In this document: positions 6,033 through 49,167 of the stretch, piece by piece
Numbering within the stretch: position 1 is the first letter of the stretch
Layout of the letters: every line of letters starts with the position of its first letter
Assembly (NCBI GenBank): GCA_011939005.1
Contig: GCA_011939005.1_4858.1
Source of the DNA: a phage
DNA length: 64,000 nucleotides
Strand: one strand, 5' to 3'
Notes under the pieces: model-generated
What the model was told of the DNA's origin: nothing
Database searches by the model: none
What the model saw: only the letters and a program-made list of their open reading frames with translations
Position numbers and translations under genes: made by a program

Positions 6033-7292
6033 TTACTTAGACTTTTCGTACGCACCGATACCAGCGCTGATGTAGCCGTTAACGCCGGCGATCAGGTTTT
6101 TCTGGCCGGTTGCAACGCAACGTTCGGTCCAGGAGATGTACTGGTTCGCAACGGTGATTGCACGACGTGCAACACGGACGTTGGAAGTCAGTTCTGCGTT
6201 GTCGTCGATCTTCACGCCGTCGATACGTTTCAGCAGTTTCTCAATAGCCTGCTCGTAACGCTCTTGAGCCTGGTTATTTTTGTGGTATGCTTTCACGTTC
6301 TCTTCGACTGCTTTACCCAGCTGGTTGAAGAACGCAACCAGGGAAGACAGAGTCTGAGCAGACGGAGTAGAAACAGACTGCTCTACGCTACCTTCGGCGT
6401 CGATAACAGTGAAGGAAGCTTCCAGGTCATCCCCATTCACTTTCACTTCGGCTTTACCGATCTGGTTGCCCAGCAGCTGAACTTCGCCCGCTTTACCTGC
6501 GGTTGCTTTGTTAACCGCTGCTGCAAAGCCAGAGCCCAGTTTGCCGCCTTCAACTGCGCCAACCATAGCGGTAGCGGCTGCAACAACTGCATCCTGCTCA
6601 GCGTAAATGCTGCCGATAGAAGACATAACGCCTTTCAGGGTGTTGATGTCGTCACCGACGAACTTACCACCGGTGGTCAGGTTCTTAATGAACCCACCGC
6701 TAACGGTGTCTTTCTTCTGCTTGCCCAGGCCACGCAGAGCAGCGTCATATTTCTTAGCACGCGCCTGAATGGATTTACCCTGGTTGCTGAACTTCAGCCA
6801 ACGGTCTTTAACCTTACGGCCTTGTTCTTTCAGCCAGTCGTAGATGCGCTGCAGGAACGCTTTGATGTCGTCCCACAGGCTTTCACGAGCAACCTGGCGG
6901 CGCTTACGTGCACCGTAAGATTCCTGCGCGACGCTTACGCGGTGGTCGAATGCCCAACGTTTACGGATAGATTCCTGCGCAACGTCCAGCTGCTCAGCAG
7001 CTTCGTCAGGCATATCTTCTTCCACTTCCATTGGCTCTTCGCCATCTTCACCTTCACCGTCAGCGGCAGCTTCAGCAGCATCGACTGCTTCCAGCTGCGC
7101 GTCGGTTTCGTCGCCGTCTTCTGCCAGCACATCTGCTTCAGCATCCAGCTGGTCGATCGGTTTGGTGTCGTGCTCGATGTCAGCCAGAGTACCTTCTACG
7201 GACTCAGCCGGCAGCTCGATACCGTCCGGAACGACAGTACCTGTACCTTCGACAGATTCACGCGCGAGTTTACTTTTTACAAAGTTTGCCAT
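6033..7292 (-). CDS. acidic paralog A of tandem pair (possible virion or internal protein)
   Basis: N-terminus MANFVKSKLARESVE and C-terminus GYISAGIGAYEKSK shared with 7370..8647; Asp/Glu-rich middle. Confidence 0.6.
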   Translation of the reverse strand: MANFVKSKLARESVEGTGTVVPDGIELPAESVEGTLADIEHDTKPIDQLDAEADVLAEDGDETDAQLEAVDAAEAAADGEGEDGEEPMEVEEDMPDEAAEQLDVAQESIRKRWAFDHRVSVAQESYGARKRRQVARESLWDDIKAFLQRIYDWLKEQGRKVKDRWLKFSNQGKSIQARAKKYDAALRGLGKQKKDTVSGGFIKNLTTGGKFVGDDINTLKGVMSSIGSIYAEQDAVVAAATAMVGAVEGGKLGSGFAAAVNKATAGKAGEVQLLGNQIGKAEVKVNGDDLEASFTVIDAEGSVEQSVSTPSAQTLSSLVAFFNQLGKAVEENVKAYHKNNQAQERYEQAIEKLLKRIDGVKIDDNAELTSNVRVARRAITVANQYISWTERCVATGQKNLIAGVNGYISAGIGAYEKSK

Positions 7293-7369: not shown

Positions 7370-8647
7370 TTAAGCTTTAGACTTTTCGTACGCGCCGATA
7401 CCAGCACCGATGTAGCCGTTCAGACCGCTGATAACAGTGTTACCAACATGCGCCACGGCACGGTTCAGAGTCTGGTAGTTACGCACAGCCTGGTCGGCTG
7501 CAGTACGTGCATTACGCAGTGCTTCCCACTCGCCTTCGTCGTTGGATTTATCCAGGGCAGCAGCAGCTTTGGCAGCAGCCTGCTCCAGTTTCTCAACTTC
7601 GGCGTCATAGGAGCGGAAGTCCTGCAGCACTTTCTCGAAACCTTTACCGATCGCATCAAGAGCGGTTGCTGCAGACGCCAGTGCGGTAATTGCCGGGGTA
7701 GCAATCTCTTTCGTGTCGGTAGAGTCGCCAGTTGACAGGAACGCCACCGCAGTGTACTCCTGGCCGCCGGCCAGAGTTTTGCTACCGATCTGCACATAGG
7801 CGTTGCCTGGCAGTGCCAGAACTTTCTGACCGCCTTCGCCATCTTCGAACTGCGGCAGGGTGCGCAGTTTCTTAGCAGCGGTACCGAACAGGGCAACATC
7901 AACAGCGCCTTTAGCAGCCGTTGCAGTACCTTCTGCAGTTTTGGTGATCGCTACGGCAGAGTCAGCCGCCTGAGAGGACAGCTTGTTGATAGCGTCTTTC
8001 GCTTTACCGCCGGTCAGCTCTTTCGCGATAGCGATGGAGTTGGCCACATCGAAGTCGCCTTCGATAGACAGTTTGCTAATAAAGCCGCCAGAGATGTTTT
8101 CTTTCTTCTGCTTACCGAGCTTACGCAGCATCTCTTGGTAAGCTTTCGCACGTTTCTGTGCAGACTTACCAACGTTGATGTATTTCAGTTTCAGCTCTTT
8201 CGCTTTCGCGATAACTGCTTTACACAGTTCAACGAAGCGCTTGAACAGATCTTTCAGGGTTTCTTTCCAGCCTTCCTGAGCTGCTTTGGTCATGCCACGG
8301 CCACGGCGATAAGATTCGCGCGCCAGTTTGGTACGATCGATAGCCCAACGCTTACGGATAGATTCCTGCGCCACTTCGGTGTGAGCGATGGCTTCTTCAG
8401 GCATCTCTTCACCGTTTTCGATTTTTTCGTCAGCAGCGTCGATAGCAGCTTCGGTACGCTCGGTATCAGCAGCCAGAGTTTCCTGGTCACCATCGAGCTG
8501 TTCCAGCTGACCGTCAATAGACGCAACTTCTGCCAGCTGAACGTCGATGTTCTCTTCTGCCGGTTCAACGTTGCTCAGACCGTCGATTACGTCGCCGGTA
8601 GCTTCAACGGACTCGCGGGCGAGTTTACTTTTTACAAAGTTTGCCAT
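7370..8647 (-). CDS. acidic paralog B of tandem pair
   Basis: Same N- and C-terminal blocks as 6033..7292 with a divergent central region. Confidence 0.6.
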   Translation of the reverse strand: MANFVKSKLARESVEATGDVIDGLSNVEPAEENIDVQLAEVASIDGQLEQLDGDQETLAADTERTEAAIDAADEKIENGEEMPEEAIAHTEVAQESIRKRWAIDRTKLARESYRRGRGMTKAAQEGWKETLKDLFKRFVELCKAVIAKAKELKLKYINVGKSAQKRAKAYQEMLRKLGKQKKENISGGFISKLSIEGDFDVANSIAIAKELTGGKAKDAINKLSSQAADSAVAITKTAEGTATAAKGAVDVALFGTAAKKLRTLPQFEDGEGGQKVLALPGNAYVQIGSKTLAGGQEYTAVAFLSTGDSTDTKEIATPAITALASAATALDAIGKGFEKVLQDFRSYDAEVEKLEQAAAKAAAALDKSNDEGEWEALRNARTAADQAVRNYQTLNRAVAHVGNTVISGLNGYIGAGIGAYEKSKA

Positions 8648-15635: not shown

Positions 15636-17366
15636 TTCGCCGTCAAGCATGTTTTTGCGATTATTGCCTTTCACCAACGGGTTACGTTTGGCCAGGTTCA
15701 GTATCGTCTGCAATGTAGCGGCAGCACTGCAACAACGACGCACCAACGACAGGTTACGACGCAAGCCGACGAAGAGGTCTTCGTCACCGTCTGGGGAGAA
15801 TAACACCATCGAGAGTTCACGACCGTCGGTACGCAGGCCAGAAGGCTGATTAAGCTCATTCATGATGACTTCGCTAATCAGGTTAACGTATTCAACGTTA
15901 TCCTTGGTTGCTTTCTGGAACTGCTCCAACACTTTAATCGTGTTGTTAACCGCCTTATCCAGTGCACTGTAACGATTCAGGTTAGTCGCAGCGGTGTCGT
16001 TGGTAAAGCCTTGTTTACCTAACGTTACCACTACAGCCAGCAACTCACGTTCGTCACCAACCGATAACGTGCCTGCCTGGCGCATTTGCTCTAAGCACTC
16101 GCGTCCCAAGAACGCAGATGCTTGTGCGTTGACCAATACCTTACCAGGCACGAAGTCCACACCATCGTCATGACCCACTAAACCACGAACTTTGTTTTCT
16201 GGGATAACGACCAAAGGTGCAGTAGCGTATTCGAATCCTTTGCGGGAAACGTCGCTGATGATGAAGTTCATCGTGGTGTTCAGCTGCGCTAACGCCTGAC
16301 CGAAAATAAGCGCGGTGTCGTGTGCTGCTTTGTTAACTTGCTTACCGTTGTGCGTGGTGGTTGAACCTTGCTGATTCTTAAAACCTTCGGCGACGCTTGG
16401 GTCAATCATCGCTTTAAAGGCACTCTGGAGCGAGCCAAAGTAACCGATAAGTTCGCTGGCAACATTCGACATCTGATGGAAGTTCAACAGGTTCGGAATA
16501 CGCACACCGGCTTCGCGAGCAGACTTCGGTAACGCCTGCCAGGCTTTCTTACCCACTTCAATCGGGTAGATACCGTACGTCACGTTGTGTTGTAACAGGG
16601 TGTCTAACAGATCGTGAATAACCTGCTGGCTTGACTGACGTTTCTTAGTGTAGCCTTTGAACAACTCAGTGAACGGCGAACGACCCAGCGCGCTACTCAA
16701 GTCGTTCAGATACTCTTCCGCGTTCATGTTCGTAAACACTTCGTCGGCCATCGCGATAGCCAAGTTCAGGTTTTCCAGGTCACGACCTTTCAGACCCTTA
16801 GAGGCTTCGATGTATGCATCTTTCACTGCGCTGATTTTCAGCTGACCAATGATAGTATTTTCGGTCTGGGAGAAACTCTCTGCTTTTTCGCCGACTTTCT
16901 CAGCGTAACCTTCGCCGTCAAATTCGCCATTACCAGCAAACCCGTTACCGTTGCTGATAATCCAACCGATGATTTTGATAATCGCGGTCATGATCAACAC
17001 AACCAATCCCACTTTACCTGCATTTGCCCAGGATTCGAGCGCAACAATAGTCTCTTTCTGGTGCGTGCGGGTATAGTTCGAGGTCAGGATTTTGCGAACG
17101 GCTTCGGGAATTGTACCTGGGCGAGAAGATTCAACAGCGACAGCGACATCTTTCGACAGACCTGCGCGACGCACTTCGTCAAGAATCGCGTCAATTTGCA
17201 GAATCAGTCGAGAGCCGTAGATTAAGTCAGCTTCGTTGCGTTGCATGTACAGATTGAGCTGGTTGACAGAATCAATACGCTCGGCCATACGTGAACGCAG
17301 GACTTCACCGATCTCCCCCAAACGCCATTTGGGGTGGGTGGCGTTACCTGTCATTTCCATGCTCAT
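15633..17366 (-). CDS. membrane protein (577 aa), function unknown
   Basis: Hydrophobic segment VGLVVLIMTAIIKIIGWII; ATGA overlap with 17363..17806. Confidence 0.5.
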   Translation of the reverse strand: MSMEMTGNATHPKWRLGEIGEVLRSRMAERIDSVNQLNLYMQRNEADLIYGSRLILQIDAILDEVRRAGLSKDVAVAVESSRPGTIPEAVRKILTSNYTRTHQKETIVALESWANAGKVGLVVLIMTAIIKIIGWIISNGNGFAGNGEFDGEGYAEKVGEKAESFSQTENTIIGQLKISAVKDAYIEASKGLKGRDLENLNLAIAMADEVFTNMNAEEYLNDLSSALGRSPFTELFKGYTKKRQSSQQVIHDLLDTLLQHNVTYGIYPIEVGKKAWQALPKSAREAGVRIPNLLNFHQMSNVASELIGYFGSLQSAFKAMIDPSVAEGFKNQQGSTTTHNGKQVNKAAHDTALIFGQALAQLNTTMNFIISDVSRKGFEYATAPLVVIPENKVRGLVGHDDGVDFVPGKVLVNAQASAFLGRECLEQMRQAGTLSVGDERELLAVVVTLGKQGFTNDTAATNLNRYSALDKAVNNTIKVLEQFQKATKDNVEYVNLISEVIMNELNQPSGLRTDGRELSMVLFSPDGDEDLFVGLRRNLSLVRRCCSAAATLQTILNLAKRNPLVKGNNRKNMLDGE

Positions 17367-17806
17367 GAAATTTGCCCTTTCAGTTCTGCCATGTAGAAAC
17401 CAACCACTTCCATAAAGCGGCTAATCCACAGACCGACGGTTTCCCAGATATCTTCCCCGAGTGCCTGGTTGAAAATCTCACGAACAGAGAAACTTTCCAG
17501 GGCTTTAGCGCCGCCATACACGTTGCAGTAACGATTGCAGTACAGACCCACGGTCATGTCCTCAATCACGCCCAAATCAACACAGTACAGCTCGTTAACG
17601 TCAGAGACGATATTACGCATTACCGGACGTAAAAACGTCCCAGCGGCCTCTGCAGCGCCATATTGGCCATTATCAGCCAGTACCGCGTTATACGCCAGTG
17701 AGAAAGCAACCAGGCCGGTCAAAGCACGCTGGGCGTGTACGCCTTTCCCTTCGTTGGTACGTTTGAAATCCAGTACCAGGTTATTTAAAGAAACTTTATG
17801 CGTCAT
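17363..17806 (-). CDS. hypothetical protein (147 aa)
   Basis: ORF. Confidence 0.5.
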   Translation of the reverse strand: MTHKVSLNNLVLDFKRTNEGKGVHAQRALTGLVAFSLAYNAVLADNGQYGAAEAAGTFLRPVMRNIVSDVNELYCVDLGVIEDMTVGLYCNRYCNVYGGAKALESFSVREIFNQALGEDIWETVGLWISRFMEVVGFYMAELKGQIS

Positions 17807-28896: not shown

Positions 28897-31002
28897 TTAC
28901 AACTCAATTACCACAGCGGCTCCTAGGTCATCGTACAACGATGCCGGGATTTTGTACTCGGTATAAAAACCAACGCGATCGATATTCCCCTGCTGTCCTT
29001 CAAACAACAACATCGGAATTGCTGAGCGCAAACTAATGAGCGTGTTGTGATCGACAAACCGTTTCCCGGTGGCATTAGTAGAATCCTCACTGTCAAATCC
29101 TACTGCCGGGAACGGATTGGTTGGCGACTCTACACGAGATATCGCCAACATAATCGCAATATGCGTCATCGGTATACCACTCAGCTTACGCTGGATATAC
29201 TTAAACGTGTCCATCAACGCATAAGTACACTGTTTCTCTGTAGCACCACCCATCTCAACCAACGTCACTGGTTTCACACGACCTTGTTTCTTGTTCAGCT
29301 TCACAGTCGATGCTGTGTTGATGATTTCCACAATGTCTTCGTTCTTATCAGCTGCAATCGAACGGAGCTTGGTTTCTAAGCCGGCTACGAACTCCGCCAT
29401 CGATTCAGAACGGTTGGTGTAGACCAGGACCGGGTGTTTCGGGTTCCATCCTTTCAAAGGAATCTGAACCGTCTTCTTCTCGATACGAATGTTCGCACGT
29501 TGTTTCAAGAAGTAATGCAAGAACGGTTTAGAGAAGTTCCCACAAACACCCATTCGCACATCGATAGAATCCGCAGCGATTATCTGCCCATCTTCTAAAC
29601 GACGTTGGAAAGTTAAGTCGGTGATTTCTGGTAATGCCGTTTCATCAATTGCATCGAGATCTTCATGATACGCAATCTGGCTCAGCTCCGAATAAACTTT
29701 GTCGGTAACAACCAACTCGTATTCTGACCAATTCCCACGCTGTGGTTTTGGCAGCAAGCACAACCCTTTCAGAGAGTTATGTTTGTATTCGGTCATATAC
29801 TCACGCATACGTGGGGTGAGTACCAGGTTGAGCAGATAACGCAAGAAGTCAAGGTGCTTGGTAGAGAGAATTCCCTGTGTACCCTTTTCCGAGATGGACG
29901 TGGATGCCAGATGACCTGGTGACGTACCTTCAGAGAGGTTATAAATCAAATCCCCCATACAGGTCGCACAGATGGACTGATTCGCCATCTCTTTACAGGT
30001 CATGGCACTACGGAAGACCAGCGGTTTGCCAACCAGGTCTGCGTATCCGCCTTTCTCAAATCTCAACCACGGACCATTATCGCCTTCTAAACGATAACGC
30101 ATCCCCACCATCGCTTTATAGGCACGCTCATCCAGCTGCGTATCCTTAAACGTGTAGCGGTGTGCGTGAGTTGTACCGCAGTCGTCGTACGTGAAATACA
30201 TCAGTACGTTTGCTGCCAACTGCAGTTTACGTGAGGCGTATTCTGCTTCGGCAATCTTGTCAGTGTTGTACAAGTGGGAACGTGAAGTTGCACCGGATTC
30301 TTTCAAACGCGAAATAACCGAATGCATTCCGGTAAAGAAGCCTTCCCACACCTGATTGGTGTATACACGTGAGTCAATTTCTGATGTTTTACCACGCACG
30401 AAGGCTTGCAATACCTGGTTCATCTTCACAGTACCGTCCAGTACCGACATCACGACCGGGTTATACCGTAGCGCAGGGTCTTTGAAGATTTTCTCGATAA
30501 GCTTGTACGCTTCTTCAACCATATCCCGACCATCTTCATCGTAGCCAGTAGGATATTGCACTTCCCACTGACGGATGAGTTCGAAGTTCGGATGGTCGTA
30601 GATCTCCATCATCGTATCAAAGTCGATTGTCGTGCAATAGGACAGCAGGTTCTTCACTGTCATGTTGAACGCATCGGCGTAGACATGTTGACTCAGGATA
30701 TAACGCGTTTCAGCAAGGTCGACACCTGCTTTACGGGCCAGTACCGCTGCTTCCGACATAAAGTCCAGATGCAGGTCATCTGTTGCTACCTGACCTGGAC
30801 GATACGCCATGGTCGATGGAGTGGGCACCTGCGGATACAGACGCGACACACCCCAATACGGCCAGCTGAGTTTGATGTGGCGACTAGACATTTCCAACGA
30901 CTTACCATCGTCGAAAGTCACGTAATAACGCCCGCGTAGTTTCCACACCTGATCAGAGTTAAGCATACGCAAATCACGCACGTGTACAGAACGACCCGCC
31001 AT
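28897..31002 (-). CDS. large hypothetical protein (701 aa), possible transcription-complex partner
   Basis: Immediately downstream of and 1-nt overlapped with the RNAP beta-like gene; no catalytic motif recognised. Confidence 0.5.
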   Translation of the reverse strand: MAGRSVHVRDLRMLNSDQVWKLRGRYYVTFDDGKSLEMSSRHIKLSWPYWGVSRLYPQVPTPSTMAYRPGQVATDDLHLDFMSEAAVLARKAGVDLAETRYILSQHVYADAFNMTVKNLLSYCTTIDFDTMMEIYDHPNFELIRQWEVQYPTGYDEDGRDMVEEAYKLIEKIFKDPALRYNPVVMSVLDGTVKMNQVLQAFVRGKTSEIDSRVYTNQVWEGFFTGMHSVISRLKESGATSRSHLYNTDKIAEAEYASRKLQLAANVLMYFTYDDCGTTHAHRYTFKDTQLDERAYKAMVGMRYRLEGDNGPWLRFEKGGYADLVGKPLVFRSAMTCKEMANQSICATCMGDLIYNLSEGTSPGHLASTSISEKGTQGILSTKHLDFLRYLLNLVLTPRMREYMTEYKHNSLKGLCLLPKPQRGNWSEYELVVTDKVYSELSQIAYHEDLDAIDETALPEITDLTFQRRLEDGQIIAADSIDVRMGVCGNFSKPFLHYFLKQRANIRIEKKTVQIPLKGWNPKHPVLVYTNRSESMAEFVAGLETKLRSIAADKNEDIVEIINTASTVKLNKKQGRVKPVTLVEMGGATEKQCTYALMDTFKYIQRKLSGIPMTHIAIMLAISRVESPTNPFPAVGFDSEDSTNATGKRFVDHNTLISLRSAIPMLLFEGQQGNIDRVGFYTEYKIPASLYDDLGAAVVIEL

Positions 31003-33239
31003 TATTTATCCTCCCGAATTGGACGCACTAATTCAAAACCTTCACAGCGATGGATGTTACGTATCATCCTGTCAATCTGCGAATCACCCATTGGTAGTTT
31101 CTTACGATCGACCAGCACCCCTGGATTGGTTGGTGTTGGCGAGTTATACAGCCCCGTTACGATCGCACGGTGTACCGCAGGGTTATTAGCGCGGTCATGA
31201 GTTTCGGGGAAGTTGCCCGGACCAAAGCCGTCGGTAAGACGCTGCTCGGAAGGACCACCCCACTTCAACCCTTTCAGGTTAATCGGATATGAACCACGTC
31301 CTTGGTTGGATGCATCAATACAACCCAAATAGTTCGTGTACATCGACGAGATACTGGAGAACTCACGACCGGTTTTATCCAGGCGCAGAGTCTCTACCAT
31401 GCCGACGTAGAACTGGTTCTTCGTCCACTCTTTCTCACCCTGATAGTTAGTAATCAGTAGCTTAGACTTGCGTGGTGCATACTCGCCTAGAGCACGGCAG
31501 ATTTCTACCTGGGTAGCATTCAATTCGTGGGGAAGCCAGATACGAATCGTGAAGTCGTAAATCTCTTTAAAGAGTTCCAGACGTGACCCAGTATCCGGGT
31601 GACTGGAATTGAGATAGAATGTCCAGCGTGGGTTATAGCGATCGATATAGTCCATCAGGATTTCCCAGGCTTCGTCAACCTGGTTGGCGGCAAGTAATGG
31701 TTTCAACCGCATCTTCAACTGCTCGGATGCAGCAGACCAATACATGTGGAACAGCGCAGCATAAGTCGAACGACGAATTACGGCGTTCATGGAACGAATG
31801 ACATGCACACGTTCTCCGAACTCGTTAATCGGCATTTCTTCATCAGGCCGCACTGCGCCCACGATACCTTTTGTACCTGAACGGTCGGTGATTTTCGATG
31901 AGACGGTAACTGGGATTGGATAACGTACCACGATGCGTATCGTGTAGCTACCAATTGGGTCCCAGAGACCACGCTGAACCGGCTGCGCCAGTTTGTTCAA
32001 CACGTTCTTATCAGCAGAACGGTTATACTCACCTTTACGCATGGCTTCATCGTATTCACGACCAATCTCTTCACGGAAGTCGTTATAGACTTCATACGTC
32101 TCAGAACAGAACGCCTTGTCAAGGATCTCAAACGCTTTCGGTGACCAGACAATGTTCTTGTCTTTGGACATCGCAAAATAGAACCGCACGATATCATTGT
32201 AAAAACGTTTCAAAGCGTTCGCGTAGTGATCTAACTCGCGTTTGTTCTCTTCGGTACATGCGATATTGTTAACACCACGATCGCATTTGGTTTCGTCCCG
32301 CCATACCTGAATATCAACGACACGAGAACCGGTACGTTCCATCTTTTCAAAGTCGCCGGCCTGACGCGCTTTGTAATGCTCAGGGTCAGCGTCAACATAC
32401 TCACAACGGTCGAAGTGCGGAGAGATATGTTGTGTTTCACCTACGTGCGAGTCAATGGCTGCCCATAGCTTATCGAAACGGCGCGCGGCAATAACCAACC
32501 CATCATCACGAATTGCCTGTCCTTTATTGGGCAGGTACTGTGGTCGACGAACGCCATCAATACCCGTTGTCCCATACGTGTCAAGCAGGTACTCGTCGTC
32601 GCGCAAGGTAAAGTCAATTGCACGCAAACCATAAGCGTGCATCGCCTTCGCTGCAGTTTCGGAGATGGTGTACGAGTCCTCGATAATGTCCGGGTGCGAC
32701 ATTGTCACGGTGTGCAGGTTGACCCCATCGACAAACTCACCGTCTTTCTGTGCCGGCAGTACGGTAAGCATTTCATCTTTTTCCAGGTGCTGCGTCTGTC
32801 CGCGCAGCAACGCCTGAAGTTTCCCAGTAGCCTCTTTCTTAGACGAGAAAATGTTATCGTGGTTGGTGTAATACTTAATATCGATTACATCAATCATCAC
32901 TTTGCGCTGGTTGGTTAAATCTGCGCGCTTGAAGAAGATAACATGCTGGAGCGGATCGTGATCCCCTTCACGACCATAGCGTGCAAAAACAGCTGCACGA
33001 GTAACACCTTCTTTGGTTGTGTAACTGCACACAGTACCACTGTCTTCCACGATATCGTTAAAACAATAATCGTGGTAGTTCACATCAGCGCCGGTAAAAT
33101 GGATAGTCGGATCTGGATTGTCCAGTGGTACCGCCGACTTCATATGTCCACCCACCATTGAGGCACGTGCCCCAGATACGCCAGTGATATTCACCTCACG
33201 GTCAGCAACGCTTGACATGAGTTCGACTGGTGTTTTCAT
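31002..33239 (-). CDS. multisubunit RNA polymerase beta-like subunit, C-terminal part
   Basis: SSKITDRSGTKGIVGAVRPDEEMPINEFGERVHVIRSMNAV aligns residue-by-residue with bacterial beta [38 protein letters not shown]. Confidence 0.75.
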   Translation of the reverse strand: MKTPVELMSSVADREVNITGVSGARASMVGGHMKSAVPLDNPDPTIHFTGADVNYHDYCFNDIVEDSGTVCSYTTKEGVTRAAVFARYGREGDHDPLQHVIFFKRADLTNQRKVMIDVIDIKYYTNHDNIFSSKKEATGKLQALLRGQTQHLEKDEMLTVLPAQKDGEFVDGVNLHTVTMSHPDIIEDSYTISETAAKAMHAYGLRAIDFTLRDDEYLLDTYGTTGIDGVRRPQYLPNKGQAIRDDGLVIAARRFDKLWAAIDSHVGETQHISPHFDRCEYVDADPEHYKARQAGDFEKMERTGSRVVDIQVWRDETKCDRGVNNIACTEENKRELDHYANALKRFYNDIVRFYFAMSKDKNIVWSPKAFEILDKAFCSETYEVYNDFREEIGREYDEAMRKGEYNRSADKNVLNKLAQPVQRGLWDPIGSYTIRIVVRYPIPVTVSSKITDRSGTKGIVGAVRPDEEMPINEFGERVHVIRSMNAVIRRSTYAALFHMYWSAASEQLKMRLKPLLAANQVDEAWEILMDYIDRYNPRWTFYLNSSHPDTGSRLELFKEIYDFTIRIWLPHELNATQVEICRALGEYAPRKSKLLITNYQGEKEWTKNQFYVGMVETLRLDKTGREFSSISSMYTNYLGCIDASNQGRGSYPINLKGLKWGGPSEQRLTDGFGPGNFPETHDRANNPAVHRAIVTGLYNSPTPTNPGVLVDRKKLPMGDSQIDRMIRNIHRCEGFELVRPIREDK

Positions 33240-36759: not shown

Positions 36760-38394
36760 TTAAGAATTAAACCATTCAACTTCTTCTAACTTGCGACGTG
36801 CATTCAACACCATAAACTCCGCCAGGCTATTGTGCAGTGACAAGTGAGGTATATAGTTTGGCTGATCCGTCTCACACTTCAGCAGCGCAGCTGCTTCTGG
36901 TGTAGCCCTGAGATGGAACAGATACGGGTTGATGTGATCCTTGTGTAACAAGGTCAGTGATTCCCGTGGTGTAGATTGCGGTTCGAGATTACGCGGGTTG
37001 CGGTACTCCTGAAGATAATATCTATCTAAATCTGCTTTGAGTTCAGATCGAATTGGATCGGCTGCATAACCGGCAGACATCTCAGAACGCACCATATTGC
37101 AACTTAACAGTTGCGCAACGTCATACATTCCATAATTGAGATAAGTTGCCTGCGCCAACGCCATACCGTAGCGAAACGCTTCTGGTCCACATTCAGTATA
37201 CGTCTTATAATGCGCGCTACGATGGAGTGCTAATGCGACTAACCATTCATGCAACGTATAGACAGGACCGTCATGTGTTGCCAGTTGCGAATCAATCAAT
37301 AACTTAACATCTGCTGGAGCGGCATTATCCAGACGCATTGTTTTCAAGAAAGAGCGGTATTCTTTAAATACGTACTCGGTACGGACGTATTCTTTCATCT
37401 GTGCAGGAGAACGTGCCTGCACCAAATCCATGGCGTTTATCTTACCCTTTTCGCCATTGAATACCACACTTTCCGGATGCGCTTTTAACAGCACCGGCTG
37501 GTTAGAGATTTTGTTTGCAAAACCTGTTTCAATCTCTTGTTTAACCAGAAAATACATGCTGGTGACGATATTGTTGTTAACCATGATTTCAATCGGTAAT
37601 TCACCACCGACTTCACGGACAGCCAACAATTTAATAATAGCATACGCCAGGATATAATCTTCCATCATATCCGTGCCATAGCCCCGCACCGTAGCCAATA
37701 CCGACAAACTGGTGCTGTTCGTACCTTTGTTTGCCAGTTCTTTTTCTACCTTTTCCATCACTGTCTGTAGGAACCCACGCAGTTTCGGAATAGCAGGTAA
37801 AGACATGACTTCTGTGTCTTGAAGCATCTCCAGACAGTATGTCAGATTGTACACCATTTTCCGATGTGTTTCGATTGGCAAGTTCTTACCTATCGGGAAC
37901 GTCCCCATGGTGAGGAACACCGGAATATACGGTTTAATCATCAGGACCAGTATCAACAACTCGTAATAGTCCGGACGAATGTACGTCATCGCTTCCGGAT
38001 AATTACTGTTCATTTCATCGTGCGTATCTTCCATGTTCTGCGGAATCCACAGCTTATCGATGGGATACAGCTTACGATACACTTCAGCCTTGTGGAACTT
38101 CGCGATCATCTGCACAATCTTCGGCATGTGCTTACGCTGCGTTTCCGTCGATTCGTTTGCCAGCTCGTCCAGCATCAGATACGCCATGAACAGTTCATCT
38201 TGTTCGTCTGGCGTTAAATAATCCCACACGCGTTGTAATTCCATGAAGAGAATGTTGTCGCGTGCAATCTGTTTACCTTTAACAGTGATGTAGTCGGGTG
38301 CGTTGTTATCCTTCCGATAACGTAAGCCAATAAATGTGACCTCTTGACCATGATGCTCGATTGTCATCCGGTCTTTAATCTTCATAATTTTCAT
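36760..38394 (-). CDS. hypothetical protein (544 aa)
   Basis: ORF; contains an internal copy of the promoter-like 22-mer at 37011-37034. Confidence 0.55.
   Translation of the reverse strand: MKIMKIKDRMTIEHHGQEVTFIGLRYRKDNNAPDYITVKGKQIARDNILFMELQRVWDYLTPDEQDELFMAYLMLDELANESTETQRKHMPKIVQMIAKFHKAEVYRKLYPIDKLWIPQNMEDTHDEMNSNYPEAMTYIRPDYYELLILVLMIKPYIPVFLTMGTFPIGKNLPIETHRKMVYNLTYCLEMLQDTEVMSLPAIPKLRGFLQTVMEKVEKELANKGTNSTSLSVLATVRGYGTDMMEDYILAYAIIKLLAVREVGGELPIEIMVNNNIVTSMYFLVKQEIETGFANKISNQPVLLKAHPESVVFNGEKGKINAMDLVQARSPAQMKEYVRTEYVFKEYRSFLKTMRLDNAAPADVKLLIDSQLATHDGPVYTLHEWLVALALHRSAHYKTYTECGPEAFRYGMALAQATYLNYGMYDVAQLLSCNMVRSEMSAGYAADPIRSELKADLDRYYLQEYRNPRNLEPQSTPRESLTLLHKDHINPYLFHLRATPEAAALLKCETDQPNYIPHLSLHNSLAEFMVLNARRKLEEVEWFNS
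37011..37034. promoter_or_regulatory. intragenic copy of promoter-like motif GAAGATAATATCTATCTAAATCT
   Basis: Near-identical to intergenic copy at 38428-38450; lies in codons DRYYLQEY of 36760..38394. Confidence 0.3.
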
Positions 38395-42957: not shown

Positions 42958-43230
42958 TTAGCCCATCACCGCTTCCAACGGAATGCCTTCTTCATCATCC
43001 TCATCTGCTTCAATAAGGAACTGGTTCTGCATACTGATTAGCTCGTTATGTAAAACCATGCCGTGTTCTACGCGGTCCACATCAGTAGAAGACATAAAGC
43101 CGTTATCTGGACGGAATTGGAGCGCCAACTTCATCTCAGTTTCATCGACTGGTAAACGTACCTGGAACTGGTCGCCATCAAAATCCTGTTTGTCCACTCC
43201 AATCCTTTTGGAGCAGGTGTGTAGTAACAC
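42958..43230 (-). CDS. RNA polymerase beta-prime-like subunit, 3' exon (carries catalytic DFDGDQ motif)
   Basis: LLHTCSKRIGVDKQDFDGDQFQV matches beta-prime [21 protein letters not shown]; open frame begins right after in-frame TAG TGA. Confidence 0.65.
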   Translation of the reverse strand: MLLHTCSKRIGVDKQDFDGDQFQVRLPVDETEMKLALQFRPDNGFMSSTDVDRVEHGMVLHNELISMQNQFLIEADEDDEEGIPLEAVMG

Positions 43231-44589
43231 CCTCCCTAACTTTCACTAGGGCACAGACCATACCTTAGCCATGAGCTTTCGCTTTTAGGCTCCTCCCCAC
43301 TTCGGTGCTATTCTAAGCACCTACGAGCATTTCAGCTCCGGTCGTTGAACGTTCCTCTTACGAGGCTTCGCTGCTGATTACCCATTGTTAAAACCCTTAG
43401 CAGTATTGTTTAGCATAGGTCATCTCATTACTTGTTTCCGACTTTCGTCTCCACATGGGCAAATGAGCTTTAGGGGTTCCCAGCAATTCAGGGAGATACA
43501 CATCAGAGGTTTCCCGTCTGATGGGGCAAGGCTATTCTGCTGTTAAATATTGAACTTCAAATTGTTTGTACTTTCCGGTTTGTGAGACTGCTTTGGCCAC
43601 AGTGTTTCTTTTCACACCAATCGCGTTTGAAAACTCTTGTAAAGAATTCCAAATGGTTTTGATGTTAGTGGTCGTATCAGTCACACGCACCATCGACGGT
43701 ACACGTTTTGGCATTTGTGATTGTGGTCTGGGTTTGCGGAGATCGATCATGTCAGTTATGGCAACATCGATATCCACCATGTACCACGCCTCATATCCAA
43801 ACTTAGTCAAATCGACGGAACCGCCGTTGAGATGGGAATAGATGAGGTGTGGTTTTATACCCACGTATTCGGCTGCTGCCGGTACAGACGAGAACAGGAA
43901 ATATGGTTCCTTACCAACTTTTCTGATGACCAGTCCTTTATTACCTGGTCCTGAGTTCTTACCAATAGAATTCTTGGTGAGAATCCAGTCGTCTTCCGGT
44001 ACCTTGACTTCAAACACATCATTTAGCGTGTATTGACGATTAAGCCCACGTGCGATCGAGCTTGAAACCAAGTGCCGATTAACGCCGATATACTCAGCCG
44101 CCTTAGTCATGCTACGGAACTGAACTATATCGCCGGTCTCGAGATTTCTGACATCGACAATAATGTTGTCAGTTCTTAGACCAGTATCGAAAGCATGATT
44201 AACATTTTCCTTTCGATAACACCACTCAAGGTTTACCACAGATGGATTACTCTTAACACCATCACGATGGTTAACCTCGTCACCACATTTATCCAGGAAC
44301 ACAGTCGCAACAATTCGATGTAAATGGGTTTCGCCTTTACAACCGCGCACTCCCAGGTATCCACTTTTGAGAATGAAGACTGGTAGCGGCGTGACCATAC
44401 CTTTTACTTTACAGTCGCCCAATGCATCAACAAAGAGATCACGATAGACTGGGTGTCTGTAATACCCCTTAAAAACATACGAGGGCTCTAAATCATCGCG
44501 TAGTTTCCTACTCAACTTTTCAATAATCACAATTTATTCCCTATTACCAGTCACCGACTAAGAATAAGGAATAGCAGAATAACACTTTT
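43231..44589 (-). mobile_element. putative group I intron (phage IA-like) carrying an HNH homing endonuclease ORF; boundaries approximate
   Basis: Splits a beta-prime-like coding sequence; ~300 nt non-coding RNA after the endonuclease ORF contains GUUCAACGACC (R-like) and UAUGGUCUGUGC (S-like) elements whose GACC/GGUC can pair as P7; candidate 5' exon ends in U and intron ends in G. Confidence 0.55.
43532..44530 (-). CDS. HNH homing endonuclease with NUMOD/IENR-type DNA-binding repeats
   Basis: HLHRIVA...VNHRDGVKSNPSVVNLEWCYRKENVNHA is an HNH motif; three helix-turn-helix-like repeats AAEYIGVNRHLV, AAEYVGIKPHLI, FSNAIGVKRNTV. Confidence 0.8.
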   Translation of the reverse strand: MIIEKLSRKLRDDLEPSYVFKGYYRHPVYRDLFVDALGDCKVKGMVTPLPVFILKSGYLGVRGCKGETHLHRIVATVFLDKCGDEVNHRDGVKSNPSVVNLEWCYRKENVNHAFDTGLRTDNIIVDVRNLETGDIVQFRSMTKAAEYIGVNRHLVSSSIARGLNRQYTLNDVFEVKVPEDDWILTKNSIGKNSGPGNKGLVIRKVGKEPYFLFSSVPAAAEYVGIKPHLIYSHLNGGSVDLTKFGYEAWYMVDIDVAITDMIDLRKPRPQSQMPKRVPSMVRVTDTTTNIKTIWNSLQEFSNAIGVKRNTVAKAVSQTGKYKQFEVQYLTAE

Positions 44590-45957
44590 ACCGTTAGCCA
44601 TCTTGATCACACGGTCAGAGATACGCAGCGAACACTGGTTAACATCGGTAACAACTTCGTCGATGAACAGCGTCTGAATAGACAACTGTACCAGCGTTGG
44701 GTTACGTAGCGGTATGACCATGATCCCAAGACCGCCTGGGGATTCACGAATCAGTTCTTTAAAGATTTCGTCTACAAGCGGGTCATACTGCATTGCCGCT
44801 TTTGCGACGATACGTTCACACTGCCGTGACGAATAACCGCGTCGTAGCAGTTTGTTCTCGATGTGGGTCGACATCAACCCAACCATCCAACGCCATGGTG
44901 CTTTTAACTTCCAGGCATCGTGTGGTTCTGAGATAGGTGAGATGGTTGCACGACCACCGAACGGGATGTGGGTAGAACCCAATTTCGCACGATAGTCACC
45001 CGGTTTACCTTCCATAGACTCACGACGGAAGTCCATGTGGAAGTACGTTAGCTGACGGTTCGCCTTCAAAGCACGACTAATCAGAAAACGTGGTTCGATC
45101 GCTTTACGCCGCGTATAGAGCAACGCGATATTTTTCACCGCGTCAATAGCACCCGTGAACACTGGGTCTACCATGACACCACGACGACCTTCCTCAGTAA
45201 CGATAAGTTTAGAGGAGATTAGCGGTAAGTGTCTTGGGAAGAATGCATGGCGTTGCGTTTCGAATAGCTCCTTCCATTGTAAACGTAAGCGTTCACCTTC
45301 AGCGGCGTTATGCCGATTAGGTGCGAAGATTTCCTTCCAGGCTTCTGGCGTGGTAAGGATGTTAAAGATACTAACGTGGTTATCAACCAGATTGCGCAAG
45401 CCACGAACGAAACCATGTTCTTCCAATACACGTTTCACAGCATGTGCGCGTTTACCGTCTGGTTCTTCTATACGGTAATACGGGTCAATCATCCACATCA
45501 TCAAGTCATTACCGCGTTCGATAGTGACCTTGTTACGTTCAAACTTCTTCAACTTGCTATTAAAGAAAGCATTGAACATTGCCCAGAATCGTGGGTTGAC
45601 GAAGTTACCCATTTCATCGGGTGCACGTAACCAGACATCGGATTCAATTCGATGTTCAGTTACAACATAGCCACACGTCGGACACTTACAACCGAGATTG
45701 TAACGATGCGCGATCGGTGCCGGACAATCCAAACTACAAATCGGTGCAGAGTTCAGTTCTTCGTCAACGATTCTGTTCTGTACCATGCGATCGATAAGTT
45801 CAGCAACCTCGATCGCATCCCCGTTAACGGCGACATCGTTAATAATAGTGGGTGGTTTAATACCTTTGGCAGCAGCTTCTATTTGCAAATCGGACAAATA
45901 GTTATCCTGACTAACCAACCGGCCGGATATTCCGTAGAATTTTGGTACCTTTCTCAC
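44551..45957 (-). CDS. RNA polymerase beta-prime-like subunit, N-terminal part (5' exon; ORF reads on into the intron to the stop at 44551)
   Basis: Zinc-ribbon-like CSLDCPAPIAHRYNLGCKCPTCGYVVT and RNPTLVQLSIQTL resembling beta-prime RxPTLHRLGIQAF. Confidence 0.7.
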   Translation of the reverse strand: MRKVPKFYGISGRLVSQDNYLSDLQIEAAAKGIKPPTIINDVAVNGDAIEVAELIDRMVQNRIVDEELNSAPICSLDCPAPIAHRYNLGCKCPTCGYVVTEHRIESDVWLRAPDEMGNFVNPRFWAMFNAFFNSKLKKFERNKVTIERGNDLMMWMIDPYYRIEEPDGKRAHAVKRVLEEHGFVRGLRNLVDNHVSIFNILTTPEAWKEIFAPNRHNAAEGERLRLQWKELFETQRHAFFPRHLPLISSKLIVTEEGRRGVMVDPVFTGAIDAVKNIALLYTRRKAIEPRFLISRALKANRQLTYFHMDFRRESMEGKPGDYRAKLGSTHIPFGGRATISPISEPHDAWKLKAPWRWMVGLMSTHIENKLLRRGYSSRQCERIVAKAAMQYDPLVDEIFKELIRESPGGLGIMVIPLRNPTLVQLSIQTLFIDEVVTDVNQCSLRISDRVIKMANGKSVILLFLILSR

Positions 45958-45969
45958 ACTGTCAACCTC

Positions 45970-46016
45970 AACAAAAAAAGAGGGAAGGACGGAGGCGTTA
46001 GCCCCCGTCCGTTTCC
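45970..46016 (-). terminator. intrinsic terminator
   Basis: A7 then GGACGG...CCGTCC hairpin on plus strand, after stop of 46040..47893. Confidence 0.6.
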
Positions 46017-46039: not shown

Positions 46040-47893
46040 TTACAGTTTGAAGTTGCTCAGAGTCACGCCCAGACCGAAATCGGAACCGCTTGCAGACAGG
46101 CCGTTGCCAGACAGCGTGAAGTCTTCCCCACCGTTGTTGAAGAACAGAGAGGTCGCCATCGTGTTGTAGGCATTTACACCAGTCATAGACCAGGTGCAGT
46201 TGTTACGGACGAAGTCCAGCAGGCATTTACCGAAGATCGGGTTGATAGCCATATCCAGAGATTCACCGGTAGCTTGCGGTGCTTTGGATGCGAACAGAGA
46301 AGCGGCCAGTTTCAGCATGTAGATACGCTGTTGACGCTCGTTCAGTTCACGGTGGCTGTAGGACTGTGCGTTCAGGTAGCTATAGACGTCGTTCGCGTTA
46401 TCACCCAGTTTGGTAACAACGGAAATCAGGTCCATATCCTGGAAGCTACGTTTCTGTGCAGTACCGGTGTAAACACCGGAAACAGTCGGTACGGCTGCTT
46501 TCACGATGTGGCTGCAATGGATGGTACCATTGAAGGCATCGCCCAGCTGTGCTTTCAGTGCAGAAGCAAATACTGCAGTGAAGCTGGTCGCTGCAACAAC
46601 TTCGCCGTTCTGATCACGCGGGGACATGGAATTCAGAATAGCGAGCAGCTGTTTCAGAGAGTTGTCGTAACCGACCGCAATTTCAGACAGCAAAGTAGAC
46701 AGACCACCCAGGCCGTTACCGGCACGATGGCTAACTACCAGTGCTGCTTCACGCGGTGCGAACATATCCAGGCAACCTTCGATAGCTTCACGGCTACCGT
46801 CGATTTTGGATACATCAGGACGAGCGTCAGCACCCCAGGACAGGTATTCTGCCACACGGGAGAACTTGCGATCTTGTTTGTTCAGACGTTTCACAAACAG
46901 GTCACGCCAGCCACCGATTGCCGCGATTTCTGCAAATGCAGCCAGCAGCAGCAGTTGACGTTCATACGGTGCCATTGCACCTTCAGTTTGAGAATCGATC
47001 AGACTTACTACGATTTCAGCCTGCAGCTGTTTCAGGTCGTAGACGCCGTTAACGACAGGCTTCTGACCGGTGAAACGCATATTGACGAAACCGGTACCGG
47101 ATACACGCGGATACACCTGTACCTGATTGGTGTCCAGCAGAGTCGGAGTGGCGTCGGTTACGTTGCTTGGGCTGTGCTCAACGGTGATTGCGAAATCAGC
47201 ACGCTGTGCGTGGCCGTTAGCATCAACAACCGCACCATCTTCCAGCGGCATTACTGCGGCCTGATAACGGTCATGCTTACGCAGGTTCAGCGTACCCAGG
47301 TAGCCTGCGATACGACCGAAGATGCCCATCATCATCTGACCCATCAGAGTACGTGCCCACTCAGCATCCAGAACTTTACCCAGGTCTGGTACGGAGTTGA
47401 TGATCATGAAGTTCGCATTGGTCAGACCATGCGCTTCCATGATGTTTTTCTGTACTACTGCCAGCACGTCTTTGTTGAACAGTTCAGTGATGGTGTAGTA
47501 GTCTTCCTGGCCGTTGTTGGTAGTTTCTTTCAGACGCAGAGACTGACCGCGTTCAAAGAAGATGATACCGTACAGCCAGTGGCCCTGCCATTGGCCTGCG
47601 ACGTACGCCGCGGAACCCATTTCGTTACCCACGCCGACGATGGTGCCCCAGCGGAATGCGTTGAGGTATTCGTTGCTTTTCTTCAGCTCATCCAGGAGGT
47701 TGGTGAAGTGCATTGCATAGGTGCTGATGTTGCGGATGCCAAATGCGTTATCGAATTGGCTGACAGTAGAAGTACCCGGCACAGCAGTTTGCACTTTTAC
47801 AGTCTCGTTGCCCAGACCGCCCAGTGGTGCGGTGTCTTGAGTCTGAGTGTTGTTCTGCTGAGCGTTGTTGTTAGAGTCAACGATTTTTACCAT
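46040..47893 (-). CDS. abundant 617-aa protein: candidate phage-nucleus shell (chimallin-like) or major structural protein
   Basis: AAGGAA Shine-Dalgarno, promoter-like motif 45 nt upstream, strong terminator downstream, sits beside the beta-prime-like gene; assignment is by context only. Confidence 0.4.
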   Translation of the reverse strand: MVKIVDSNNNAQQNNTQTQDTAPLGGLGNETVKVQTAVPGTSTVSQFDNAFGIRNISTYAMHFTNLLDELKKSNEYLNAFRWGTIVGVGNEMGSAAYVAGQWQGHWLYGIIFFERGQSLRLKETTNNGQEDYYTITELFNKDVLAVVQKNIMEAHGLTNANFMIINSVPDLGKVLDAEWARTLMGQMMMGIFGRIAGYLGTLNLRKHDRYQAAVMPLEDGAVVDANGHAQRADFAITVEHSPSNVTDATPTLLDTNQVQVYPRVSGTGFVNMRFTGQKPVVNGVYDLKQLQAEIVVSLIDSQTEGAMAPYERQLLLLAAFAEIAAIGGWRDLFVKRLNKQDRKFSRVAEYLSWGADARPDVSKIDGSREAIEGCLDMFAPREAALVVSHRAGNGLGGLSTLLSEIAVGYDNSLKQLLAILNSMSPRDQNGEVVAATSFTAVFASALKAQLGDAFNGTIHCSHIVKAAVPTVSGVYTGTAQKRSFQDMDLISVVTKLGDNANDVYSYLNAQSYSHRELNERQQRIYMLKLAASLFASKAPQATGESLDMAINPIFGKCLLDFVRNNCTWSMTGVNAYNTMATSLFFNNGGEDFTLSGNGLSASGSDFGLGVTLSNFKL

Positions 47894-47936
47894 TTTAAAT
47901 ATTCCTTAATAGTGATTGCAATCATAGTTCGGTTCG

Positions 47937-47955
47937 CAGAGATAATATCTGCCTG
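47937..47955. promoter_or_regulatory. conserved promoter-like motif CAGAGATAATATCTGCCTG
   Basis: 44-62 nt upstream of minus-strand start at 47893. Confidence 0.5.
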
Positions 47956-48030
47956 TAATTCCATGGAATGCAAGTATGCCGTCGCTTACTTACAAGGCAC
48001 ATAGTCCAGACATTTCTCAGGAACTGTCAC

Positions 48031-48050
48031 ATAGATAATATCAATCTGAG
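48031..48050. promoter_or_regulatory. conserved promoter-like motif ATAGATAATATCAATCTGAG
   Basis: 29-48 nt upstream of plus-strand start at 48079; second copy in the same divergent intergenic region. Confidence 0.45.
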
Positions 48051-48078: not shown

Positions 48079-49167
48079 GTGGAATCTAAGGAGTCTGCCA
48101 TGTTCAGCCAAGCCGAGTTAAACCAAGTGGCCATAAAGGGTCACAGCACGGACCCCTCCGCTATAACATTAGCGGCTCACGTAAAAAACAACAGCCAGCG
48201 TATACGCAACTACTTCGAACAGCTTAATCGCAGTGCTGGTAATGGCCATTTGTTGCAACAGGTGTTGTCTGCCATCGGCTATGCCGGTGAACCAGAGTAC
48301 GAAGACATCGAATGGGCTTGCCGTCGCAAGCTTGTTCAGATCGGTAACGCCTTACGCTTGACATCTGTTGGTGAGTACGGTCAAATCTTTAATAGCAAGT
48401 TTATCCAGGGCCAAGATGAGGTAATCTCTCTCGTAGCCCGCCCAGTAAATCCAGACCTTTCGTTCCGCGACTACACCCCCGCCCGTTACCTCTACCATGA
48501 GTATACCAACCTCAATTGGAAGTTCGGTGACGGACGGCCCCGAGGTGTTACGGTGATCGAAATCAACCTGGTTGCTTTGCTTTGGCAATATGTCAAAGGC
48601 CAGCAGCACTACAGTCGCGGTACCGAACCTATTGCCACACCTGTGTATCTCCAACGACATGTGATCTCTCGCATGTTGCCGAGCTACATGGATATCGCCT
48701 TTGTAAATATACATCGCGCGATAGCCTTCGGGAAAGAGATTGAACCGGATGAAACATTACGTGTCATTCCTGTTCCGCCGCTTCAAGCTTTAGCTGTGAA
48801 GCACGCAAAAGGCATCCGTAGTAAACTACTGGCTGCCAACCCGTTACCGGGACAAGTCTTAAACAACATCCCGTTGTTCTTCCAACACCCTGATGAAGAA
48901 GGCCACACAGCACTGGAACTGATTGTCTTTCGAGAACCAGGTCAAACACTGCAGAACACCTGGCACCAGAACATGGTGAACTGGTACTGGGCACTGTTTT
49001 GTCTTCAATACAACCAGGGGAATATGGAGAAACACAAACGTACGATGTTGGTTGATTTGGCGCGTTATGTGGACTCTAAAGTCCTCACACGTTTGACCAA
49101 ATCCTTCTATAACTTTATCCAACGCGATTTGATTATCCCGTTGACGACAGAGCTAGAAGAAAAATAA
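48079..49167 (+). CDS. hypothetical protein (362 aa)
   Basis: Plus-strand ORF with AAGGAG Shine-Dalgarno, terminator downstream. Confidence 0.55.
   Translation: MESKESAMFSQAELNQVAIKGHSTDPSAITLAAHVKNNSQRIRNYFEQLNRSAGNGHLLQQVLSAIGYAGEPEYEDIEWACRRKLVQIGNALRLTSVGEYGQIFNSKFIQGQDEVISLVARPVNPDLSFRDYTPARYLYHEYTNLNWKFGDGRPRGVTVIEINLVALLWQYVKGQQHYSRGTEPIATPVYLQRHVISRMLPSYMDIAFVNIHRAIAFGKEIEPDETLRVIPVPPLQALAVKHAKGIRSKLLAANPLPGQVLNNIPLFFQHPDEEGHTALELIVFREPGQTLQNTWHQNMVNWYWALFCLQYNQGNMEKHKRTMLVDLARYVDSKVLTRLTKSFYNFIQRDLIIPLTTELEEK

Follow-up and report, generated by a model that had tools for sequence, protein, structure and literature searches.

In jumbo phages, chimallin (ChmA) is the abundant major protein of the phage-nucleus shell, in which protomers form tetramers and their N- and C-terminal segments dock on neighbouring protomers, giving a flexible square lattice around the phage DNA (PMC9365700). 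For Salmonella phage SPN3US a diverged chimallin, 'gp244', with ~10% identity to the ChmA of 201phi2-1 was reported by Laughlin et al. 2022, whose SI Table 7 lists as chimallins YP_009153316.1, EC001 gp240, those of Proteus phage 7 and JN03, pSal-SNUABM-04 gp029, Caitlin gp248 and ChrisDB gp253 (PMC9365700). Phages of Erwinia, Salmonella, Proteus, Escherichia and Cronobacter that have no PhuZ were described as a clade, with SPN3US, Proteus phage 7 and EC001 in the genome table, and the GFP-gp039 fusion of phage Asesino was found to form a ring around DAPI-stained phage DNA (PMC11724907). The subject of the present analysis is an open reading frame (ORF) at 46040..47893 on the minus strand of a 64,000-nucleotide stretch of phage DNA (contig GCA_011939005.1_4858.1 of assembly GCA_011939005.1; the whole stretch is called the window below), which very probably encodes ChmA in its SPN3US or Seoulvirus form. 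The finding is a confirmation of what was already known, as the protein had been listed as a chimallin in print and the location of a close orthologue had been determined experimentally. The evidence contributed here comprises the fold, remote sequence homology, synteny, expression signals and conservation of the tails. A first-pass annotation made from the letters alone had proposed a chimallin-like nucleus-shell candidate of 617 amino acids at this place; its span was found to be exact, on the minus strand, and its proposal is borne out by the fold, the profile-profile match, the synteny, the Asesino ring and SI Table 7 of Laughlin et al.

The ORF was found to begin with ATG and to end with TAA. 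The start codon can be taken as fixed because M1, K3 and the MVKxVE motif were found to be conserved across 28 homologues. At the DNA level the ORF was found to share 99.8% identity with Escherichia phage vB_EcoM_EC001 and 99.5% with SPN3US, and the 42 phage records that matched it were nearly all SPN3US-like (genus Seoulvirus). The encoded protein was found to share 100% amino acid identity with the EC001 copy and 99.5% with that of SPN3US. The gene is labelled 'hypothetical protein' in SPN3US (SPN3US_0022), as in all annotated phage records examined. The RefSeq record YP_009153316.1 corresponds to ACQ60_gp244, to positions 15768..17621 and to GenBank SPN3US_0022, and by this equivalence the ORF in the window is the published SPN3US-type chimallin.

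The locus numbers of SPN3US were found to run in opposite directions in GenBank (JN641803.1) and RefSeq (NC_027402.1), GenBank gp22 being RefSeq gp244, the chimallin, and SPN3US_0244 being ACQ60_gp022 (YP_009153538.1), a virion protein of 240 amino acids identified as the C-terminal part of the virion RNA polymerase (RNAP) beta' subunit. The accession YP_009153538 was cited as 'SPN3US chimallin' in a 2025 preprint (10.1101/2024.12.31.630880) and appears to be the wrong protein. The 'gp22' of the genetics and proteomics literature, proposed there as a head scaffold, and the 'gp244' of the structural literature, the chimallin, are one protein. The practical value of the present work is this clean-up, in which gp22 and gp244 are joined by independent structure-based and profile-based evidence; its discovery value is little. 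Annotation pipelines will keep missing chmA in this clade, because the records say 'hypothetical protein' and the protein escapes ordinary sequence searches.

An AlphaFold2 model built on the 28 homologues was found to have a predicted template modelling score of 0.81 and a mean predicted local distance difference test score (pLDDT) of 78, with residues 57-576 mostly at pLDDT 80-94 and with residues 1-56 and 580-604 predicted to be disordered. When the model was compared with the PDB by Foldseek, the top nine matches were all chimallin (E 2.5e-20 to 3.4e-16), followed by a tenth match at E 0.035. The chimallin entries matched were those of Goslar (7SQV, 7SQU, 7SQT), 201phi2-1 (7SQQ, 7SQS, 7SQR, 8IGG) and phiPA3 (8FNE), and the chimallin fold, an N-terminal alpha/beta domain followed by a C-terminal GNAT-like domain, was matched over the whole core of the predicted model. 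The matches in BFVD were proteins of ~600-690 amino acids from phages that the published list of chimallins also covers, among them Noxifer, RP12, RSF1, Eowyn, D3 and pTD1. Hhalign matched a profile of the 28 sequences to aligned Goslar, phiKZ and RAY ChmA along 400 collinear columns (96.2% probability, E 2.2e-9). The structure- or profile-based search against chimallin that the first-pass annotation had put forward as a check was positive with Foldseek and with hhalign.

Two other identities bear on the same structural search. The gene is abundant, strongly expressed and ~600 amino acids long, which is the sole support for a major capsid or other virion structural protein; an HK97-fold match, which the first-pass annotation had named as evidence against its own proposal, was absent from the Foldseek results, and the capsid identity is refuted in practice, with a probability close to nil. 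The GNAT-like domain could also be taken to indicate an active GNAT-type acyltransferase in which the likeness to the shell protein is incidental. This is extremely unlikely, as the GNAT matches were found to cover ~1/5 of the protein at 3-13% identity and no acetyltransferase Pfam model matched. A GNAT-like domain is moreover already known from the solved chimallins, where it is apparently non-catalytic and where the matching groove holds the C-terminal segment of a neighbour (PMC9365700).

Several results weigh against the identification of the ORF as chmA. A Pfam scan of the query at E <= 0.01 and at E <= 10, with PF25677.1 included, gave no chimallin match, its sole output being noise such as FliC_D2 at E 0.056. 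The PDB sequences searched with phmmer and with a hidden Markov model of the 28 sequences gave no match, chimallin included, at E <= 1 or E <= 10, and BLASTP comparisons with Goslar, phiKZ and RAY ChmA were not significant (best E 0.088). The structural evidence comes from a predicted model and not from a solved structure. The localisation was obtained for the Asesino orthologue and not for the exact protein, and the link of gp22 to the lattice sheets seen in SPN3US lysates is indirect. The reported repeat of that SPN3US lattice, 6.7 nm (~13.4-13.5 nm when doubled), exceeds by ~16% the 11.5 nm unit known from the shells of 201phi2-1 and Goslar. In prohead preparations of protease mutants that had been purified twice, the Thomas laboratory found gp22 to be about as abundant as a capsid protein and proposed a scaffold or core role for it (PMC7411985).

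When PF25677.1 was run locally, Goslar, phiKZ and RAY ChmA were matched, and the query and three close homologues were not matched at E <= 10. Precomputed PF25677.3 ('Chimallin_Phikzvirus') was found to be carried by nine homologues 49-65% identical to the query, whereas the 99%-identical cluster was found without it. The PHROGs search of the query gave only phrog_8316, of 'unknown function'. In an exhaustive profile search of 1.8 billion representatives, 25 relatives were found (E <= 1e-3; representatives at 50% identity), and the named canonical chimallins were not directly reached. By the sequence comparisons made here, homology to the canonical chimallins shows only at the profile-profile level. 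All tblastn matches of the protein fell within phages of Erwinia, Salmonella, Escherichia, Cronobacter and Proteus, and judged by these searches the family is small and clade-restricted.

The most distant profile relatives were the metagenomic proteins P0042-P0052 (E 1e-32 to 1e-3, 582-681 amino acids), which were found to contain long Arg/Glu-rich N- and C-terminal tails in place of the Asn/Gln-rich and Gly/Ser-rich ones and to retain motifs of the core, among them R-[AS]-D-F-x-I and G-[FY]-V-N-x-R-[FY]. They may form a clade of chimallins that has so far gone unsampled and in which the chemistry of the tails is different. In several records of the Salmonella phages SPFM (LR535901-LR535912 etc.; SPFM1, 5-10, 12, 14, 20), chmA and the RNAP genes were matched only in numerous short fragments; tblastn gave 3-5 pieces per place, and the corresponding predicted proteins were matched in 18-23 stretches. 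This pattern suggests frameshift-ridden assemblies and not real gene decay.

The prohead proteomics bears on a proposal made by the group that studied SPN3US by genetics and proteomics, namely that gp22 is a prohead scaffold or core protein, which would fill the capsid or give it its shape during assembly and be removed on maturation, possibly by the gp245 protease. The peptide counts of gp22 were comparable to those of the major capsid protein in twice-gradient-purified particles of two protease mutants, and gp22 was absent from wild-type virions and DNA-filled heads (PMC7411985); in giant phages a scaffold resembling T4 gp22 has not been identified, and seven S/A/G-x-E motifs were found in the sequence. 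The same absence from wild-type virions answers the other finding that the first-pass annotation had named as contrary to its proposal, presence in virions at capsid stoichiometry. The predicted protein is, however, a globular alpha/beta two-domain protein and not of the elongated helical type usual for scaffolds, and the Asesino orthologue was found to ring DNA and not capsids. Shell fragments that co-sediment with stalled, shell-docked proheads would explain the proteomics. Abundance of gp22 in infected cells was described both in PMC7411985 and by Heymann et al. 2020, who found large tetragonal sheets with a 67 A repeat in SPN3US lysates; we infer that these sheets are made of gp22. In view of the fold, the Asesino localisation and the sheets in the mutant lysate, co-purified shell fragments would be a simpler explanation than a scaffold, which is accordingly held to be very unlikely. 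A second role of gp22 in head assembly is conceivable.

The identification as ChmA is also consistent with the conservation of the tails. In the N-terminal tail only the first six residues (MVKxVE) were found to be conserved, followed by a variable stretch and then by residues 46-60, which were kept across the 28 homologues, as were residues 582-610. In the C-terminal extension F584 was found to be invariant, and G588, L594, G596, G598 and L608 were at least 90% conserved among the same homologues. By analogy with the published architecture (PMC9365700), codons 43-56 may be an N-terminal lattice-contact segment equivalent to the NTS of chimallin, and codons 577-617 are candidate CTS1/CTS2 lattice-contact segments.

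The conserved G-G-E motif at 588-590, in the linker before the last tail segment, was found to fit the S/A/G-x-E prohead-protease motif, and in phiKZ the prohead protease reportedly cleaves chimallin at a site that separates the C-terminal domain from CTS1 (PMC9365700). An unlikely extension of the chimallin identity is that the lattice of Seoulvirus, or of the 'PhuZ-less' phages, is differently spaced (~13.4 against 11.5 nm), held by its own Gly/Ser-rich tail motifs and coupled to capsid maturation through a gp245 cut at G-G-E590. Stalled proheads would then stay bound to shell fragments, and the gp245 cut between the core and the last tail segment would release capsids or remodel the shell. 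If true, such a coupling would account for the 'scaffold' proteomics without giving up the identity as a shell protein.

The gene order around chmA was found to be conserved. A block of divergent family-B DNA polymerase, divergently oriented gene of ~360 amino acids, ChmA and non-virion RNAP (nvRNAP) beta' was found to be identical in Goslar, RAY and Asesino, with the shell gene annotated as 'nuclear shell protein' in Goslar and 'major nuclear shell protein chimallin' in RAY; in phiKZ the order is gp54 followed by gp55, and the phiKZ chmA was published as co-transcribed with its nvRNAP gene. In keeping with the core gene set of the Chimalliviridae, genes for the divergent family-B DNA polymerase (PF20286) and for parts of a multisubunit RNAP were also found in the window. 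The gene downstream of chmA starts at 45957, is a homologue of the RAY 'nvRNAP beta' subunit 1' and carries the catalytic DFDGD motif. The adjoining beta-prime-like gene of the first-pass annotation and the arrangement of shell-protein and RNAP genes that it had invoked were both confirmed in this way. The true start of the divergent neighbour on the other side is probably an ATG near 48104.

An antisense ORF of 576 amino acids at 46274..48004 on the plus strand, extending across nearly all of chmA, was considered and rejected because homology, synteny and the annotation of related genomes all lie on the minus strand. It is most likely a shadow of the strong codon bias of the minus-strand gene, and no coding support was found for it.

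The first-pass annotation had also suggested looking for a tubulin (PhuZ) elsewhere in the genome. In a tblastn search of the window with phiKZ gp39, no match was found (best E 2.9), and the same query matched two Salmonella-phage records as against 33 Salmonella-phage records that carry this ChmA. The absence does not count against the shell protein, because PhuZ does not belong to the core genes of the family and the clade was published as PhuZ-less.

The expression signals were found to be those of an abundant product. The effective number of codons (ENC) of chmA was 34.3, the second lowest of the 42 ORFs in the window, and biased codons together with the ribosome-binding site, the terminator and the promoter-like element make the description as a highly expressed gene, given by the first-pass annotation, sound; the published abundance of gp22 agrees with it. 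The median ENC of the window is near 49; two adjacent ORFs at 6033..7292 and 7370..8647 on the minus strand (419 and 425 amino acids) were found to have values of 33.7 and 35.9 and probably encode other very abundant proteins.

The ribosome-binding site, described earlier as strong, does contain AAGGA nine nucleotides ahead of the ATG and is good, not exceptional. A promoter-like motif had likewise been claimed, and here the over-represented element stood whereas a sigma-70 promoter did not. The sigma-70 consensus scan of the window gave three sites against 8.4 expected, that is, no enrichment, and it was disregarded as evidence because phages of this kind use their own RNA polymerases. The near-palindrome GATAWTATC was found at six exact sites in the 64 kb (33271, 37014, 38430, 47941, 48034 and 56909), five of them intergenic and ~30-60 nucleotides upstream of start codons and one inside the ORF at 36760..38394. 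With one mismatch allowed, the 10-mer occurred 16 times against 2.75 expected, and none of 100 shuffles reached 16. The extended form of the element on the minus strand was found to be TAGATAGATATTATCT. Copies precede the start codons of chmA, of the divergent neighbour, of an RNAP-subunit gene (31002..33239) and of two further minus-strand ORFs; the copy at 48034..48042 (GATAATATC) faces the divergent gene, and a near-identical element was found in the same place upstream of the Asesino orthologue gp39. The element is probably a phage promoter, perhaps of the early (virion-RNAP) class.

The strong terminator of the first-pass annotation was confirmed. The gap of 83 nucleotides between chmA and the next gene was found to contain the hairpin GGACGGGGGC-UAAC-GCCUCCGUCC at 45987..46010, followed seven nucleotides further by a U7 tract at 45973..45979, and the 88-nucleotide intergenic RNA folded at -31.3 kcal/mol (z = -2.8). 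The consensus terminator scan overlooked this hairpin because the U run is offset, and the region was folded separately. Counterparts of the hairpin and U tract were found after chmA in Asesino, where base changes keep the stem, and in Goslar and RAY.

Taken together, chmA would be transcribed early by a phage RNA polymerase from the phage-specific GATATTATC promoter and translated efficiently from its good ribosome-binding site and strongly biased codons. The strong hairpin terminator would probably let only a fraction of the transcripts read into the nvRNAP beta' gene, and by this partial read-through the shell protein would far outnumber the polymerase. The two-domain core of ~520 residues would form the tile, and the disordered conserved segments (~43-56 and ~577-617) would in this clade reach neighbouring protomers and knit tetramers into a flexible square lattice one molecule thick. 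Such a lattice would enclose the replicating phage DNA and exclude host nucleases. The coordinates of the features are collected in Table 1.

Table 1. Features of chmA and its surroundings in the 64,000-nucleotide window.
Feature	Coordinates	Strand	Basis
chmA coding sequence, 617 amino acids + stop; orthologue of SPN3US_0022 / ACQ60_gp244 / YP_009153316.1	46040..47893	-	ORF list, translation, fold and profile matches to chimallin
N-terminal tail, codons 1-42, variable, predicted disordered, Asn/Gln/Thr-rich	47768..47893	-	pLDDT 25-35; column conservation 0.29-0.44
Short conserved helix ahead of core, codons 43-56 (FDxAFG...)	47726..47767	-	helix 43-50 at low pLDDT; D48 and A50 nearly invariant
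Two-domain folded core, codons 57-576: N-terminal alpha/beta, C-terminal GNAT-like	46166..47725	-	predicted model
Gly/Ser-rich C-terminal extension, codons 577-617, predicted disordered yet conserved (LFxNNGGExFxLSGNG ... SDFGLGV...F.L)	46043..46165	-	pLDDT 31-37 (580-604), 56-77 at end
Shine-Dalgarno AAGGA, 9 nucleotides before ATG	47903..47907	-	sequence read; TTAAGGAATATTTA context same in Asesino
Candidate phage promoter element GATATTATC (context CAGGCAGATATTATCTCTG), 48 nucleotides upstream of ATG	47941..47949	-	over-represented motif that precedes several non-virion genes
Intrinsic-terminator-like hairpin (10-bp GC stem, UAAC loop) + U7 tract, between chmA and nvRNAP beta'	45973..46010	-	folding
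Downstream neighbour: exon 1 of nvRNAP beta' (N-terminal piece), homologue of phiKZ gp55 / RAY gp223 / Asesino gp40	44590..45957	-	phrog_2987 E 4e-155; tblastn; splice reconstruction
nvRNAP beta' exons	44590..45957 and 42958..43185	-	splice reconstruction
Ribozyme core in intron	43234..43562	-	Rfam RF00028 E 7e-10, 47 bits, just under gathering score 50
HNH/NUMOD homing endonuclease ORF in intron, 332 amino acids	43532..44530	-	Pfam/PHROGs
Divergent conserved neighbour, phrog_3938 (unknown function), SPN3US gp21	48079..49167	+	PHROGs; same arrangement in Goslar, RAY, Asesino

The nvRNAP beta' gene next to chmA was found to be split by a group I intron of 1,404 nucleotides (43186..44589, minus strand). 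Splicing after U44590 and after G43186 (the canonical U and omega-G) rebuilt a protein of 531 amino acids identical to SPN3US gp23, with the insertion directly before the catalytic DFDGD motif (..MANG|DFDGDQ..). The intron was found in three phage records only (Proteus phage 7, SaP7 and SPFM1), and SPN3US and EC001 are without it. In Goslar, a distantly related chimallivirus (NC_048170.1, 5150..7271), an annotated group I intron with an HNH endonuclease was found in the same gene, where exon 1 ends in the NADFDGD motif (..KGYNADF). The two insertions suggest repeated or shared homing into the codons of the polymerase active site.

In comparison with the solved chimallins, namely Goslar gp189 (7SQT-7SQV), 201phi2-1 gp105 (7SQQ-7SQS, 8IGG) and phiPA3 gp53/PhuN (8FNE) of Pfam PF25677, the window protein was found to share a structure-based identity of 12-13% only, a likeness invisible to BLASTP, HMMER and PF25677.1. 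Its tails differ from theirs, the N-terminal one being Asn/Gln/Thr-rich and the C-terminal one Gly/Ser-rich with its own conserved motifs; its phage clade is without PhuZ, and the lattice repeat reported for SPN3US is ~16% larger than the Goslar and 201phi2-1 unit. The ChmA of Asesino (gp39, YP_009290657.1), the localised chimallin of the PhuZ-less clade, was found to be 64.3% identical over 100% of the query, with 618 against 617 amino acids. Asesino shares with the window the neighbours (DNA polymerase, divergent gp38, ChmA and nvRNAP beta'1 gp40), the context of the ribosome-binding site, the upstream GATATTAT element and the hairpin with its U tract, whereas it belongs to the genus Erskinevirus and not Seoulvirus, infects another host, contains an nvRNAP gene without intron and is the phage in which the localisation was done. 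The proteins of SPN3US (gp22; SPN3US_0022 = ACQ60_gp244 = YP_009153316.1) and EC001 (gp240; QKN85862.1) are effectively the same protein as that encoded in the window, whose genome differs from both in the intron of the adjacent RNAP gene.

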